Source: a virus
Lineage: Duplodnaviria; Heunggongvirae; Uroviricota; Caudoviricetes
IMG/VR virus record: IMGVR_UViG_2703718852_000003
Span: 1 to 27,458 of that record
Length of the DNA stretch: 27,458 nucleotides
Direction: 5' to 3' (one strand)
Shown here: positions 5,427-15,557 of the stretch, one piece after another
How positions within the stretch are numbered: the first letter of the stretch is position 1
How the letters are laid out: each line of letters opens with the position of its first letter
Position numbers and translations under genes: made by a program
Notes under the pieces: generated by a model
The model's database searches: none
What the model was told of the DNA's origin: nothing
The model's input: the letters and a program-made list of their open reading frames with translations, nothing else

Positions 5427-5789
5427 TTAATGACCTGCTGCGCGGAGTTTTCCGTCAGGTTCACCGGCAAGAGTCAGTAATTGTCCCTGGTCTTCCTGCA
5501 GAATAGTCAGGCGACCACCGCGATTGACATACATCGGCGTTTCGGTGGTGTCTTCTTCGGAAATTTTCCCGCGGTTAGTCGGGCGAACATATGAGAGTTT
5601 GTGTTTGATTTTCACACGGTTCTCATCAAATGGTTCGATTTCCAGGTTGAGTGAGACCTTACCTTTGGTTTTCGTGTTCATCACACCGGAAGCGACTTCA
5701 CTGAGAACTGCGCCGATTTTGGTTTCAAATACGCCGCCGTCCAGCTCCCCGATAAATGCCTGCACATCAGTACTGCGTTCGCTAGCCAT
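5427..5789 (-). CDS. YfdP-like small early protein
   Basis: Start placed at the internal ATG (MASERSTDV...) preceded by AGGAG; the 77-codon upstream extension in the ORF track is Cys/Pro-rich and overlaps strong RNA stem-loops, so it is probably leader, not coding. Confidence 0.55.
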   Translation of the reverse strand: MASERSTDVQAFIGELDGGVFETKIGAVLSEVASGVMNTKTKGKVSLNLEIEPFDENRVKIKHKLSYVRPTNRGKISEEDTTETPMYVNRGGRLTILQEDQGQLLTLAGEPDGKLRAAGH

Positions 5790-5837
5790 TTTGCTGCTCC
5801 TCATCATATCGACCCTGTAAGGTCGGTTAGTTTCTCC

Positions 5838-5972
5838 ACAAAACAGAGAAGAACACCTGCGGTGGCAGCCGCCCGGATGGATTGGGTTATGAGCCCGTCG
5901 TCCGGTGATGCTCTTCTCTGTTTTGTAAAAAGAGCGGTACCAGCCGGAAGCAAGGGTACAAACTGGTACCGC
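5838..5972 (-). repeat. Two adjacent strong inverted repeats in the leader of the leftward early operon: 15-bp perfect stem (5838-5852 with 5912-5926) and 10-bp perfect stem (5934-5943 with 5963-5972)
   Basis: Perfect reverse-complement arms read directly from the sequence; located in a roughly 700-bp GC-rich ORF-poor region between the operator sites and the first early-left gene. Confidence 0.5.
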
Positions 5973-6397
5973 CAAAGCAGTGGCTGTTGTGGTGGGGTTG
6001 TCACTCAGGCGTATGGTCAACCTGACAATCCGGTGTCCTCAACGGGGAAAGAGTAACCCCGCCATACTTACCGCCGCGCCATTTCGCGGATTACCACAAC
6101 GCTGAGAGCACTTAGCCAGTTACGGCACCACACTTTGTCGCGGCTCCATAAATGCCCTCATCGTTGCACCCTGGTCTCTTCCCAGGCGTCAAACCGAATC
6201 GCCACGCTGGTTAGGCGTCTTATCAGCATCATCATTGACTTGCACATTCCGGCTACCTGGTTTGTTTGCCCGAGCAAGGAGTGGATTGTCCCCTTTAACG
6301 TCCCCAGACCGCTAACGACGCATGTGCCATACGCCGTGTTACAACCAAATTTTGTTAGTACCTTGTTTGTTTGTCTGGAAAGAAAGATAAAATGAAG

Positions 6398-6436
6398 TTG
6401 CGCATTATGCAAGTGTTTTTGTTGCGAGATATGCAA
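6398..6436. promoter_or_regulatory. Putative leftward operator pair: TTGCGCATTATGCAA (6398-6412) and TTGCGAGATATGCAA (6422-6436)
   Basis: Same TTGCG-N-GCAA pattern recurs in the cI-cro intergenic region (TTGCGCGTTAAGCAA at 7205-7219); position fits an OL/pL region downstream of the cI terminator. Confidence 0.4.
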
Positions 6437-6450
6437 TTTAAAGGGTAATG

Positions 6451-6470
6451 AAAAGCCACCTTTGGGTGGC
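6451..6470 (-). terminator. Rho-independent terminator downstream of the repressor gene
   Basis: GCCACC-CAAA-GGTGGC hairpin followed by TTTT on the minus strand, about 20 bp after the cI stop. Confidence 0.5.
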
Positions 6471-6491
6471 TAATTGATGAGGAGGTAAGGG

Positions 6492-7184
6492 TTAATTGTG
6501 TCGCTTAAGGGTTTGTGACTGGCTGATTAAGACCTTTCCAAAGACCATAAACCGGTGTTCATTTTCGCTGGTAATTCCCCATTCACGGTAAATCTGGTTA
6601 TCAGAAATCACCAGTAGTTTGTCAGGTATCATTTGCAGTCGTTTGACATAAATTTTATCATCAAAACCAAATACATAGATACCATCTCCATCAAACTGAT
6701 TGATACTGACATCAACGAAGATGAGATCTCCTGGCTCAATGGTTGGACACATACTGTCCCCACGAACGTTGATAACTTTAATGTGATTGGCTGGCCGTCC
6801 GCCAAACATCGATACAGCATTATCAGTTCTGTATTCAATGGCATGAATCACATCAATGACATCACCGCCCTGGATAAGGCCATTTCCCGCACTGGCACTG
6901 ACATCCAGCATTTCAATACGGAATACATCCTTCACCTGCGCAACATCCTCACTAATACTGTTTTTACATACAGTATTACTTTTGACGTCTGAGGTAAAGA
7001 GATCAGCAATATCAACACCTAAGCTCCTGGCAATATTACTCAGGGCTTGTTCAGTGAATTGTTTCTGCTTACCTGTTTCCAGGCGTGAGATATTCGCCGC
7101 ATCCACTCCTATTGCTTCAGCGAGATCGGCGATTTTCATGTTCTTCGCCTGGCGAAGTTGTCTGACTCGGTTTCCTATGTTCAT
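6492..7184 (-). CDS. cI: CI-like prophage repressor (XRE-type helix-turn-helix plus S24 LexA-like self-cleaving peptidase domain)
   Basis: N-terminal helix-turn-helix (VRQLRQAKNMKIADLAEAIGVDAANISRLETGK); C-terminal S24 catalytic dyad GDSM ... KRL; divergent from a cro-like gene. Confidence 0.9.
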   Translation of the reverse strand: MNIGNRVRQLRQAKNMKIADLAEAIGVDAANISRLETGKQKQFTEQALSNIARSLGVDIADLFTSDVKSNTVCKNSISEDVAQVKDVFRIEMLDVSASAGNGLIQGGDVIDVIHAIEYRTDNAVSMFGGRPANHIKVINVRGDSMCPTIEPGDLIFVDVSINQFDGDGIYVFGFDDKIYVKRLQMIPDKLLVISDNQIYREWGITSENEHRFMVFGKVLISQSQTLKRHN

Positions 7185-7204
7185 GCGTTTATTACATTTC
7201 TTTA

Positions 7205-7267
7205 TTGCGCGTTAAGCAAATCAACTTGCGCAAAATATTTGCGTGAAATAATATGCTTATCACGCAA
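7205..7267. promoter_or_regulatory. Operator/promoter region between cI and cro: TTGCGCGTTAAGCAA, palindrome TTGCGCAA, and inverted repeat TTGCGTGA-N13-TCACGCAA
   Basis: Repeated TTGCG half-sites read from the sequence in the 97-bp divergent intergenic region. Confidence 0.45.
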
Positions 7268-7281
7268 TATGTGGAGGTTAT

Positions 7282-7542
7282 ATGCAATCACCATTACGGA
7301 ATGTGCGTAAGGCGCACGGATTTACTTTGCAGCATGTTGCTGCTGGCGTTCAGGTCAATCCAGCGACGCTGAGTCGTATTGAAAGACTGGAACAAATTCC
7401 ATCTATCGATCTTGCAGAACGTCTGGCCAATTTTTTTAAGGGTGAAATCAGCGAAATGCAGATTCTTTATCCGGCACGTTTTCAATCTAGCCAAAACCAG
7501 AATGGGTTTAAACCACAGGAACAGGAGGTAAGCCGTGGGTAA
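7282..7542 (+). CDS. cro: Cro-like helix-turn-helix regulator
   Basis: 86 aa, helix-turn-helix (FTLQHVAAGVQVNPATLSRIERLEQIPSIDLAERLA); first gene of the rightward operon, divergent from cI. Confidence 0.7.
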   Translation: MQSPLRNVRKAHGFTLQHVAAGVQVNPATLSRIERLEQIPSIDLAERLANFFKGEISEMQILYPARFQSSQNQNGFKPQEQEVSRG

Positions 7543-8092
7543 TCATCACTGGAAAGTGGAAAAACAGCCTGAGTGGTACGTGAAAGCTGTCAGAAAAACT
7601 ATCGCGGCGTTGCCGGGGGGTTACGCTGAAGCTGCTGAGTGGCTGGATGTAACAGAGAACGCATTATTTAACCGCCTTCGTGCCGATGGCGATCAGATTT
7701 TCCCGCTGGGATGGGCAATGATTTTACAACGTGCTGGTGGCACTCACTTCATTGCCGACGCTGTGGCGCAGTCTGCAAATGGCGTCTTTGTGTCTCTTCC
7801 TGACGTCGAGGATGTGGACAATGCCGATATTAACCAGCGTTTACTGGAAGTCATTGAACAGATCGGCAGTTATTCAAAACAGATTCGTTCGGCAATCGAA
7901 GACGGTGTAGTGGAACCGCATGAGAAGACAGCAATTAACGACGAGCTGTACCTCTCAATTTCGAAGCTGCAGGAGCATGCAGCACTTGTCTACAAAATTT
8001 TTTGCGTTTCAGAAAGTAATGACGCCCGCGAGTGTGCAGCTCCGGGCGTCGTGGCGTCGATTGCTTCTGGTTGTGGAGAAACTAACGCATGA
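7535..8092 (+). CDS. YmfL-like putative regulatory protein (cII-position gene, as in e14-type prophages)
   Basis: 185 aa, GTG start with AGGAGG ribosome-binding site; resemblance to YmfL is from memory. Confidence 0.55.
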
Positions 8093-8427
8093 ACAGTTTA
8101 ACAACACACTACCGTCGCTCGCAACTGATTGCGCTTCCTGTACCGGGTGGAAAAGCGAAGGTGGAGTATTGCTATGCAGTAAATGTACCAGGTGACAGGG
8201 AAATTGTAACCCACAGCTTTGCTGAGTGGGCTGTGGGGGATTTCAACCGGCAGAAGGAGACAGTCCTTTGCGACAAGTTAACCGCTGGTTCAAAGATCAC
8301 TACGGAGTGCCCGTCAGAGTCATTCGTTGGGAGCCGGAAACACAACGGGTTATCTACCTCCGTGAAGGCTATGAGCATGAGTGCTTCAGCCCGCTCGAAC
8401 AGTTTCGTCGTAAATTCAGGGAAATAG
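8089..8427 (+). CDS. YmfM-like hypothetical protein (reading frame uncertain in its 3' half)
   Basis: 112 aa ORF coupled to the upstream gene; its C-terminal third is Ser-rich and low-complexity, while an overlapping frame (8226..8447) looks more protein-like. Confidence 0.4.
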
Positions 8428-12695: not shown

Positions 12696-13736
12696 GTGAA
12701 CATTCAAGCAGTAGACATTTTTTGTGGCGCAGGGGGCTTAACTTTTGGGCTAAAAAAAGCCGGGATTGAAGTTTCTCATGGCATTGATATTGATGAGTCC
12801 TGCCGTTTCGCTATTGAGAGCAATAATCCCTTAACGAAGTTCATTAACCAGTCAGTTACTGAACTGCAATCCAGCGATGTGTCTGCTATGTTCAAGGAAG
12901 GAAATATTAGATTACTTGCAGGCTGTGCCCCTTGCCAACCGTTTTCCAAGTATCGTAATCCAAATAGCAGAAAAGATGATACAAAGTGGCGTCTTTTATC
13001 TGAGTTTCAGAGGATTGTAAGTGATGTCATGCCAGAGCTTGTGACTATGGAAAATGTTCCTCAACTTAGAAATCATAAGGTTTTTGAAGAGTTTGTTAGT
13101 GTATTAAAGACTCTTGGGTATCATCTGTGGTACGACGTTGTAAAATGTTCCGAGTATGGCTTGCCTCAAAATAGACGTAGATTAATTCTAATTGGGTCCA
13201 TATTGGGGCCAATCAGCCTTGATCAAAAAAAAGTAAGCCGTAAAGTTACAGTAAAGGATGCTATTGGTCAGTTGCCAAAAATAGGTGCAGGGGAGAAACT
13301 CGAAAGTGATCCATTGCATCGTTCGCCTAAATTAAGGGATATTAACCTTAAACGAATCTTGCACTCTTTACCAGGTGGTACGTGGGATGATTGGCCTGAA
13401 GAAATTAGAGCGGATTGCCATAAAAAGCATTCAGGTGCTACCTATAAAAGTGTTTATGGACGGATGGTTTGGGACGATACTAGTCCTACAATAACTACCC
13501 AATGTTATGGATATGGTAATGGGCGATTCGGACATCCTGAGCAAAATAGAGCAATAACTTTGCGTGAAGCTGCTATTTTACAATCTTTTCCTATGGATTA
13601 TAAATTTATTGGAAAAAATACGCCTTTTTCATTCCAAAAGTTAGGAACGATGATTGGTAATGCTGTTCCCCCTATAATTGGCCAAGTAATAGGGAGAACG
13701 TTTGTTAGGCATGTTGAGGGGATAAATATCCGTTAG
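12696..13736 (+). CDS. DNA (cytosine-5)-methyltransferase
   Basis: Motif I FCGAGG, motif IV catalytic PCQPFS, motif VI ENV, motif VIII QNRRR; GTG start with GGAGA ribosome-binding site; AT-rich. Confidence 0.9.
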   Translation: MNIQAVDIFCGAGGLTFGLKKAGIEVSHGIDIDESCRFAIESNNPLTKFINQSVTELQSSDVSAMFKEGNIRLLAGCAPCQPFSKYRNPNSRKDDTKWRLLSEFQRIVSDVMPELVTMENVPQLRNHKVFEEFVSVLKTLGYHLWYDVVKCSEYGLPQNRRRLILIGSILGPISLDQKKVSRKVTVKDAIGQLPKIGAGEKLESDPLHRSPKLRDINLKRILHSLPGGTWDDWPEEIRADCHKKHSGATYKSVYGRMVWDDTSPTITTQCYGYGNGRFGHPEQNRAITLREAAILQSFPMDYKFIGKNTPFSFQKLGTMIGNAVPPIIGQVIGRTFVRHVEGINIR

Positions 13737-14394
13737 AGATAATATAATCTTCAGTTGAGTTTATTAATAAACGAAGATATAGATCAACTCTCTCTGCTCT
13801 AGACTTAACTTCTTCTAAGGGGTCAATTTGCCCCTTTTTAGAGAAGCTAGTACTTCCATGCGCGAGTTCGTTTCTGATATCCTTAAGCAAGTCTAAGTCA
13901 ATACCATTTCTACATTCAGGTGAGTTTGCGATAGTTATTCCGTAAGCCTGCGTTATTTTGTGTAATACAGGCTTGCAAACATTACCATTGAATTCTTTAC
14001 GAATATTCAATGAGGCTGAAATTATTCTTTTGGAAATGTCAGTGCCTATCTTTTTATAAAGGGATTGCCCTGTTTCATTATCTGAAACAATTCTATGTAA
14101 TATATTTACTTGAAGCTTCTCCCTGAGTGATGCGTAATTCACCTCATTATCTTGTAAATGATCATAAATTGACTCGATGCAACCTCTGGCAGTATTTTCA
14201 ACTTGATTATATAGCATCATATGAACGGATGATTTTAAAATATTTACCCTTAGGATATTAGATTCTATTTCATCTTGATGCGCTTGCGGATCTAACTGCT
14301 GAGTATGAATCTCTATAGATGATGCAAGAGAAAGCAGTTCCATAATGTCTCTTGCTCTTTCTTCATATTCATCTCGTAAATCAATTAGACTCAT
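13705..14394 (-). CDS. HEPN-like protein (R-x4-HG motif), second gene of the DUF262 operon
   Basis: C-terminal IRNELAHG fits the HEPN R-x4-6-H motif; start 3 nt after the DUF262 stop; 3' end overlaps the convergent methyltransferase by 32 bp. Family assignment by eye only. Confidence 0.5.
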   Translation of the reverse strand: MSLIDLRDEYEERARDIMELLSLASSIEIHTQQLDPQAHQDEIESNILRVNILKSSVHMMLYNQVENTARGCIESIYDHLQDNEVNYASLREKLQVNILHRIVSDNETGQSLYKKIGTDISKRIISASLNIRKEFNGNVCKPVLHKITQAYGITIANSPECRNGIDLDLLKDIRNELAHGSTSFSKKGQIDPLEEVKSRAERVDLYLRLLINSTEDYIISNGYLSPQHA

Positions 14395-14396
14395 TT

Positions 14397-15557
14397 TTAA
14401 ATCCCTAACAACTTATTTTTAACGTAAAAGATTCTGTTTTTTAGCTGGCTGGTATTGTTTGCACTATCAGCAGTAACAAGTGTTTCAAATTCCTCTTCAA
14501 ATAGCCATTCACCTACAGGTACGGCTGGACTCTGGAGTTGTGGGTTAGTTTTTAATGCAAGTGCAGTTCCCACGGCAATGGCTTCGTATCTGGCTCGTGG
14601 GGTGGTTTTACTTGTTGCGGTCTTTTTAAAGCCAATAGGGAAATGGGTAGCAACAAAAGCAAGCATCATTTCAAAATCATGTTTAAAATTATCAACATCT
14701 TGTTGAGTAGTCACAGCTGCTGCTTGTTCATTTAAATAATTATCAATAAAGGGACGGACAAATCCCTTATAGTTTTCTAAATCATTTAAATATGCAAAAA
14801 ATCTCAAAACTAACTCACGATGATCGCCATTCGACCGTTTCCGGTCTGATAATGGAGCTAGTTGGGAAAAAAGTGAGTTTGTTGAGCATGGGGTCACAAC
14901 ATCTTTATAGAACATTGAGGTAGCAGCATCTGAGCCATGCCTCACTTCCATCGCTTCTAATCTTTTAACACCTGAGTTGATCCTTTCAAATAAATCTCTT
15001 CTATGTTGTTCCTCAACATCACCTTTCAACTCAATAAATCTTAGTGAAGCTCTTAAAAATCTTCTTTGGCGGCTAGCTAAAAGATCTGAAAATTTGAAAC
15101 CTTCTAAACTTTTAAGCTCTTTCAAATCCTTTAACTCAAATTGATCGTTCCAAAAATAATAAATAGAGCGTATCCGTTGTGAACCATCAATGATTTCTAC
15201 CCTACCATCTAATTCAGGGTCTTCATTAAATACATCAGCAATGTAAAGGTAAGGTATTGGAAAGTCTAATAGAATACTTTCTATAAAGCGAGAGGCTGTT
15301 TTTGTATCCCACTTGTAATCACGTTGATAATCTGGAATAAAAAGCTCGTTTTTGTCATTTTCAATATTATCACCATACTTTTGAATAATGACTTCAACGG
15401 TCCACTCACGTACATTGTATCCAATGTTTCTCTGAGCGAGTCTGATTTCATTGTCAGCGGAAGCGGTTAAAGCTGCAATTTCAGCCTTTTTTCTGTTCTT
15501 AGCGTGTTCATCTTGTATCTGAGCAAGCTCTTCTTTGAGTTCTTTGAGTGTAGTCAT
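14397..15557 (-). CDS. DUF262 (GmrS / ParB-like NTPase) domain protein
   Basis: Hallmark motifs FIPDYQRDYKWD and EIIDGSQR (DGQQR box); AAGGAA ribosome-binding site; AT-rich. Confidence 0.8.
   Translation of the reverse strand: MTTLKELKEELAQIQDEHAKNRKKAEIAALTASADNEIRLAQRNIGYNVREWTVEVIIQKYGDNIENDKNELFIPDYQRDYKWDTKTASRFIESILLDFPIPYLYIADVFNEDPELDGRVEIIDGSQRIRSIYYFWNDQFELKDLKELKSLEGFKFSDLLASRQRRFLRASLRFIELKGDVEEQHRRDLFERINSGVKRLEAMEVRHGSDAATSMFYKDVVTPCSTNSLFSQLAPLSDRKRSNGDHRELVLRFFAYLNDLENYKGFVRPFIDNYLNEQAAAVTTQQDVDNFKHDFEMMLAFVATHFPIGFKKTATSKTTPRARYEAIAVGTALALKTNPQLQSPAVPVGEWLFEEEFETLVTADSANNTSQLKNRIFYVKNKLLGI

Follow-up and report, generated by a model that had tools for sequence, protein, structure and literature searches.

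The control of early phage genes by a repressor and its operators is known from lambda, 434 and P22. In lambda the starts of the promoters PR and PRM lie about 82 bp apart, and the 434 operator reads ACAA-N6-TTGT. Surveys of Stx phages classify the CI proteins and give no target sequences for most clades (PMC8951638), and in the SfIV paper the cI and cro genes of SfV and SfIV are described as different from those of SfII. No published operators for SfII, SfV, mEp460, ST64B, YmfK or the sequence analyzed here were found in the searched literature, absence there being no proof. Here we describe the immunity module of an Escherichia coli prophage, i.e. the region around the repressor gene in a 27,458-bp stretch of DNA (IMG/VR virus record IMGVR_UViG_2703718852_000003, Caudoviricetes, positions 1 to 27,458), which is referred to below as the window. 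Four 15-bp dyads of the form TTGCR-N5-YGCAA, two in the left operator region (OL) and two in the right (OR), are very probably the operators of the CI-like repressor whose gene lies between the two regions, as judged from sequence comparison. The divergently transcribed Cro probably binds the same dyads.

The initial annotation had pointed to a shared motif, TTGCG-N6-GCAA, on both sides of the repressor gene, and its three copies are found where it placed them: TTGCGCATTATGCAA at 6398-6412 (OL1), TTGCGAGATATGCAA at 6422-6436 (OL2) and TTGCGCGTTAAGCAA at 7205-7219 (OR-A). A scan of both strands of the window found exactly these three matches against 0.46 expected. Since 2 of 100 shuffled sequences also reached three matches, the count by itself is only suggestive; the localization is far less readily obtained by chance. 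All three exact matches fall within the intergenic DNA next to the repressor gene, 158 bp in total, where 0.0026 are expected (Poisson P ~3e-9). When one mismatch was allowed, there was no overall enrichment in the window (15 matches against 11 expected), and this search exposed a fourth site, OR-C, at 7253-7267 (ATGCTTATCACGCAA; on the minus strand, TTGCGTGATAAGCAT).

A weight matrix was trained on the sites of relatives only, with the window left out. It ranks the same four sites as the best in the window, OL2 first (21.6 bits), followed by OL1 (20.2 bits), OR-A (17.7 bits) and OR-C (15.8 bits). Two further candidates were discarded, one at 2326-2340 (14.6 bits) and one at 363-377 (13.2 bits, in a cluster of TGTACA repeats upstream of the integrase gene); both scores are within the range of the best hit in random sequence (mean 14.5, standard deviation 2.4). 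The symmetrized consensus is TTGCG-N5-CGCAA, with G or A at position 5 and A or T tolerated at position 1, which gives the 15-bp dyad above. The centers of OL1 and OL2 are 24 bp apart. The OL/OR layout that had been proposed for this locus holds, with OL left of cI, on the far side of its terminator, and OR in the cI-cro intergenic stretch.

The repressor gene (6492-7184, minus strand) encodes a protein of 230 amino acids with Pfam matches to HTH_3 (E 1e-10) and Peptidase_S24 (E 6e-19). Helix 3 of its N-terminal helix-turn-helix (HTH) domain reads DAANISRLET, and Ala99-Gly100, Ser144 and Lys181 make up a LexA-type self-cleavage set; these three motifs are conserved among the aligned repressors. 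Between cI and OL, a terminator scan identified an intrinsic terminator on the minus strand (6454-6471; a 7-bp stem with five G-C pairs, then a T run), and the same terminator is annotated in the SfII record. The cro gene (7282-7542, plus strand) is divergent from cI, with 97 bp between them. It is preceded by the Shine-Dalgarno sequence GGAGG (7273-7277) and encodes an HTH protein of 86 amino acids, also of Pfam family HTH_3. Helix 3 of Cro, D/N-P-A-T/N-L-S-R-I-E, resembles the D-A-A-N-I-S-R-L-E of the repressor. Among solved structures there were only weak, generic HTH and UmuD matches, none of them close enough for DNA contacts to be transferred.

Conservation was followed through eight species-level genomes (Shigella, Citrobacter, Pseudescherichia, Klebsiella, Buttiauxella and Trabulsiella), each represented by the repressor gene and its flanks, with repressors 66-97% identical to that of the window. 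About 230 viral contigs were added, using three different relatives as queries. Among the resulting ~240 loci there are 86 different repressor proteins, with 94 distinct OR sequences and 156 distinct OL flanks. Down to 66% repressor identity, the TTGC and GCAA half-sites and the positions of the sites are near-invariant, and variation is found in the five or six bases at the center. In 93 of the 94 OR sequences one site corresponds to OR-A and a second, corresponding to OR-C, follows exactly 48 bp to its right. Exactly two sites, 22, 23 or 24 bp apart, are found in 147 of the 156 OL flanks, and most of the others carry one site together with a copy that deviates at a single base. The recognition helix, (A/G/S)-A-N-(I/V)-S-R-(L/V/M)-E-T-G-K-Q-K, is kept in all 86 repressors, so that a single DNA specificity is expected. 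In every relative except two, a Cro homologue starts at the equivalent point behind OR.

Within OR, conservation is high at the TTGCG and GCAA halves of both sites, at ATTACA (7191-7196), ACTTGCGCAA (7224-7233) and TAAYAT (7249-7254), and at the cro ribosome-binding site; it is lowest at 7234-7246 and in the centers of the dyads. Because OL2 and the right half of OR-C lie outside the promoter hexamers, their conservation is not explained by promoter function alone. The suggestion that the motif is the recognition sequence of this immunity type is borne out in so far as the dyads are conserved with repressors of 66-100% identity and are absent where the cI/cro cassette has been replaced, and binding by the repressor is predicted on these grounds.

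Some relatives depart from the common arrangement. In L060 (IMG/VR 2534682108_000015), which is otherwise near-identical, conserved half-sites are mutated, GCAA to TCAA in OR-A and ATGC to ATGA in OR-C; this might reflect natural mutation of both operators or decay of the prophage. Two Pseudescherichia loci, L007 and L221, keep a repressor homologue (68% identity), both OR dyads and TTGCGCAA; in them OR is not followed by a cro homologue, nor the terminator by OL sites. They may represent a remnant or a domesticated repressor.

The link between motif and repressor can be examined in phage cdtI. Over 6000-6356 its sequence equals that of the window (100% identity), from 7507 on the identity is 88%, and between these flanks lies an e14-type cI/cro. 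The cassettes of cdtI and e14 lack TTGCG-N6-GCAA and carry, at the corresponding positions, repeats of the GTAC type. Since the flanks are the same and cdtI has another repressor and no motif, the interval 6357-7507 has the character of a classical immunity cassette that can be exchanged as a unit; it comprises pL/OL, the terminator, cI, OR and most of cro. The motif is co-inherited with the repressor.

The e14 immunity type itself, hinted at by the YmfL annotation of a neighboring gene, was considered for this locus and rejected, as its YmfK repressor and intergenic repeats are unrelated. BLASTP of YmfK against the repressor of the window aligns 39 residues of the S24 domain only (E 5e-6) and nothing in the N-terminal domain. 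The e14 and cdtI systems (YmfK, YmfT) resemble the present one in their genomic slot and in a ymfL-type gene on the right, and cdtI also in its identical pL leader on the left. They differ in having unrelated repressor N-terminal domains, GTAC-type repeats and a different immunity specificity.

The positions of the dyads with respect to conserved hexamers suggest how they might act. Promoters were assigned from conserved hexamers, spacing and geometry, and in each of the three putative early promoters the -35 appears to be supplied by a TTGC half-site. Putative pL (6384-6412, minus strand) has the -35 TTGCAT (6412-6407), which is the right half of OL1 read on the minus strand, a 17-bp spacer and the -10 TATCTT (6389-6384), with a start near 6377; a TAnnnT hexamer at exactly 17 bp is present in 146 of 147 distinct relatives. 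Putative PR (7226-7254, plus strand) combines TTGCGC (7226-7231), a 17-bp spacer and TAATAT (7249-7254). Its -35 is found in all 93 distinct OR sequences, and its -10 is TAACAT, TAATAT or TAAAAT in 91 of the 93. Putative PRM (7191-7219, minus strand) has TTGCTT (7219-7214), 17 bp and TGTAAT (7196-7191), and in relatives the -35 is TTGCAT, TTGCAC or TTGCTT and the -10 is TGTAAT in 93 of 93. Six bases separate the PRM -10 from the cI ATG, and no Shine-Dalgarno sequence is present, which suggests that the cI mRNA is leaderless, as in lambda.

Given this geometry, repressor dimers on OL1, which covers the -35 and spacer of pL, and on OL2, upstream of the pL -35, would shut the leftward early operon (yfdP to xis), probably by binding cooperatively. 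OR-C extends across the PR start site and the final two bases of the PR -10; its occupancy would block the cro/ymfL/replication operon. OR-A overlays the -35 and spacer of PRM; through it the repressor would regulate its own gene negatively, or Cro would shut off synthesis of the repressor. OL and OR might be joined by looping over ~0.8 kb. Upon DNA damage, RecA-stimulated cleavage at Ala99-Gly100 would part the DNA-binding and dimerization domains and free all three promoters.

Several points weigh against reading the dyads as the operators of such a switch. OR has no clear third dyad, and thus there is no obvious counterpart of the lambda-style activation step at OR2. BLASTP finds no significant alignment between the CI N-terminal domain and Cro, so that shared specificity rests on the short resemblance of their helices. 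A consensus promoter scan did not call pL, PR or PRM, which match 7-8 of 12 consensus positions (pL 7/12, PR 7/12). Its only call in OR was TCCACA-16-TATTAT on the minus strand (7275-7248), the -35 of which is not conserved in relatives. Finally, no binding data for these sites were found in the searched literature.

The structure of OR was proposed differently in the initial annotation, which drew attention to a palindrome, TTGCGCAA, and to an inverted repeat, TTGCGTGA-N13-TCACGCAA. Both exist as described, the palindrome at 7226-7233 and the arms of the repeat at 7239-7246 and 7260-7267, with 13 nt between them; it is their role that has to be revised. By itself TTGCGCAA is at chance frequency in the window (1 match against 1.0 expected). 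It is kept in 90 of 93 distinct OR sequences, as is ACTTGCGCAA, and its significance therefore derives from its position and conservation and not from its frequency. Rather than a stand-alone operator, it is better read as the invariant -35 of PR (TTGCGC, 17 bp, TAAYAT). The repeat does not hold as an operator unit, since its right arm is the right half of OR-C and its left arm lies where OR is least conserved. The role of second full OR site, which had been given to the 29-bp repeat, falls to the 15-mer at 7253-7267. With TTGCGCAA read as the PR -35 and the left arm lineage-specific, OR consists of two full dyads and not of a lambda-like three.

A more far-reaching reading, although a doubtful one, is that a two-dyad OR is run with a logic unlike that of lambda. 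Here the invariant double half-site TTGCGCAA, between OR-A and OR-C with their 48-bp separation, would belong to a deliberately weak third site that is filled only through cooperativity or by a repressor tetramer bridging A and C. Filling of this site could allow activation or tighter repression without a full OR2. Taken with a pL leader that bears a terminator-like hairpin and the lack of an N gene, the early control circuit may then be of a kind not yet dissected. TTGCGCAA may be a good right half of a weak site (B) at 7219-7233. For the 15-mer at that position the score is -1.8 bits in the window; about half of the relatives reach 6-8 bits, and one reaches 15.6 bits. It is centered 42 bp from the putative PRM start, and lambda OR2 sits at that same distance from its PRM start. 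However, it overlaps site A by one base, and A and B could alternatively be mutually exclusive.

It is unlikely that the original picture of OR was right after all, with the 29-bp repeat acting as a long operator or as an RNA or DNA hairpin, and with TTGCGCAA completing a three-site, lambda-like OR. The repeat is perfect over its 8-bp arms, and in this lineage the whole of OR is an imperfect palindrome with 32-nt arms centered at 7236. Furthermore, the centers of A and C are each exactly 24 bp away from the interval 7229-7243 (CGCAA-AATAT-TTGCG). As a central third operator, however, this interval had to be rejected, as its half-sites are everted, it scores -47 bits by the site model and it is not conserved. 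The left arm, TTGCGTGA, is a lone half-site that mirrors TTGCGCAA about position 7236 and falls in the least conserved 13 bp of OR. This half-site is confined to a sublineage from E. coli, Shigella and Citrobacter, the one in which the extended palindrome is seen; TTGCGTGA is missing from ST64B and loci L006-L010 despite the same recognition helix. The right arm is fully explained by OR-C, of which it forms the right half. Within its own sublineage, the extra half-site may have a local role.

A further alternative, for which we see little room, is that the dyads are bound mainly by another protein, be it Cro alone, the CII/CP76-family protein YmfL or a host factor. The cro gene is indeed co-inherited with the sites in all relatives but two, and TTGC is also the half-site of lambda CII. 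However, the two exceptions are the Pseudescherichia loci that keep the repressor and both OR sites and have no cro, and YmfL is common to cdtI and e14, both of which are without the motif. Lambda CII uses a direct repeat, TTGC-N6-TTGC; this pattern was searched for and set aside, being at chance in the window (2 matches against 2.2 expected, one of them inside cro on the plus strand) and absent from OL and OR. Sites that flank and autoregulate a repressor gene are, moreover, the usual arrangement for CI-type repressors. Least probable of all is that the conserved TTGC represents only promoter -35 hexamers with fixed spacing, the dyads being a by-product and the repressor binding elsewhere: three half-sites do coincide with the putative -35 of pL, PRM and PR, and TTGCGCAA alone is no more frequent than chance, but equal conservation is seen in two elements that are no part of a promoter (OL2, which precedes the pL -35, and in OR-C the GCAA half, spanning roughly +1 to +7 of PR), each site retains its partner half-site at a fixed 7-bp distance, and the motif is swapped together with the repressor gene in cdtI and e14. 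Recognition of the four dyads by the CI-like repressor thus stays the preferred reading.

Beyond the operators, the putative pL transcript would begin with a leader of ~590 nt (5790-6377, minus strand) that has no annotated gene before yfdP (5427-5789). This leader folds far better than shuffled sequence (z = -4.3). A strong hairpin at 5927-5973, GGCGGUACCAG...CUGGUACCGC followed by UCUUUUU, resembles an intrinsic terminator, and a long second hairpin follows it (5838-5926). At gathering thresholds Rfam gave no family in the window, and the leader had only chance-level matches. The phage has no N gene, and the leader stretch 6000-6356 is the part that is unchanged in cdtI despite its other immunity type. 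These features suggest that the early-left operon is under termination/antitermination control. In the related phage SfV, Roberts and colleagues reportedly described a termination-based immunity in 2007. A second type of pL leader start, GGCTACTTCGTGGGCGTCCTGCCTGTT (plus strand), is found to the left of OL in ST64B-type loci (L092), several IMG/VR loci and e14 (L091). As ST64B-type loci carry the present immunity type and e14 another, this leader is shared across immunity types, which points to a recombination joint at the putative pL start in several lineages.

The immunity region is widely distributed. Positions 6000-8100 of the window are 100% identical to chromosomal prophages of many human E. 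coli isolates, and a match covering at least 80% of this query is present in 1,027 of 5,426 complete E. coli genomes. The phages PhiR63_1, mEp460, phiSTEC1575-Stx2k, 1720a-02, Stx2a_1447, Stx2a_WGPS2 and SfII share the cI-OR-cro core (6380-7545) at 91-99% identity, and the Salmonella phages ST64B and F1055 match at ~72%. The cassette is present in 15 phage records. The Stx2a PST2 cluster, whose authors did not find its operators, was considered and excluded, being of a different, O104:H4-like type and not among these 15 records.

To the left of the module, the window opens with the apparent 5' end of a host gene (1-420), presumably prfC. Four TGTACA repeats at ~311-376 precede an integrase gene on the plus strand, located within 386-1609, with Arm-DNA-bind_3 and Phage_integrase domains. 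In strain 2024CK-00474 the same immunity region lies beside thrW/proA with a different integrase, indicating that the module occupies more than one attachment site. To the right, the open reading frame (ORF) downstream of cro (7535-8092) encodes the CII/CP76-family protein YmfL. It is followed by an ORF without a Pfam match (8089-8427) in the slot that ymfM occupies in e14, and e14 ymfM is an SOS-inducible cell-division inhibitor according to the K-12 annotation. Between a Q-like antiterminator and the lysis genes, the region 12696-15557, annotated from an identical chromosomal copy, contains a cytosine methyltransferase gene and, on the opposite strand, genes for a DUF262 protein and a HEPN-like (MAE_28990 family) nuclease. 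This region looks like a defense cargo island in the late-operon leader.

The immunity type occurs in medically relevant phages, namely the Stx2-converting phages Stx2a_1447, Stx2a_WGPS2 and phiSTEC1575-Stx2k, the Shigella serotype-converting phage SfII and Salmonella ST64B, as well as in coliphage mEp460. An operator sequence and a promoter layout make it possible to predict which prophages among common E. coli, Shigella and Salmonella are homo-immune. Natural operator mutants become recognizable, and reporter and induction work on these phages can be designed on this basis.

Compared with the HTH_3-type systems of 434 and P22, the locus has a dyad that is similarly short, conserved at four or five bases of each half-site and variable at its center, and similar recognition helices in repressor and Cro. 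A 434-repressor derivative (1sq8) is among the best solved-structure matches (E 2e-4). The half-site sequence differs, however, 434 and P22 have three sites per operator region, and the similarity to solved HTH domains is weak. The lambdoid Stx2 phage 933W has only two OL sites, as here, according to a quotation in PMC4587872; by contrast, its repressor and operator sequences are different and it has three OR sites.

Lambda likewise has an HTH repressor with a self-cleaving S24 domain that is flanked by operators and faces a divergent cro. In both systems PR and PRM are back to back, with putative starts ~77 bp apart here, one site lies over the -10 and start of PR (OR1-like) and one over PRM (OR3-like), the cI mRNA is leaderless in lambda and probably here, and neighboring OL sites are 24 bp apart. 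The operator sequences, on the other hand, are unrelated, with a 15-bp TTGCR-N5-YGCAA in place of the 17-bp sites of lambda, and two full dyads 48 bp apart in OR and two in OL instead of three in each. Unlike in lambda, OL and OR are only ~0.8 kb apart, as there is no rexAB, and there is no N gene but a structured pL leader with a terminator-like hairpin, and the CII-like gene is of the CP76/YmfL family. In contrast to lambda, 434 and P22 alike, operator half-sites appear to be used as the -35 of all three promoters. The operator sequence thus seems to be new to the searched literature, whereas the design is already known from these three phages. What is described here is a lambda-style switch of the ordinary kind, which adds a further case to the lambda paradigm and no new principle.

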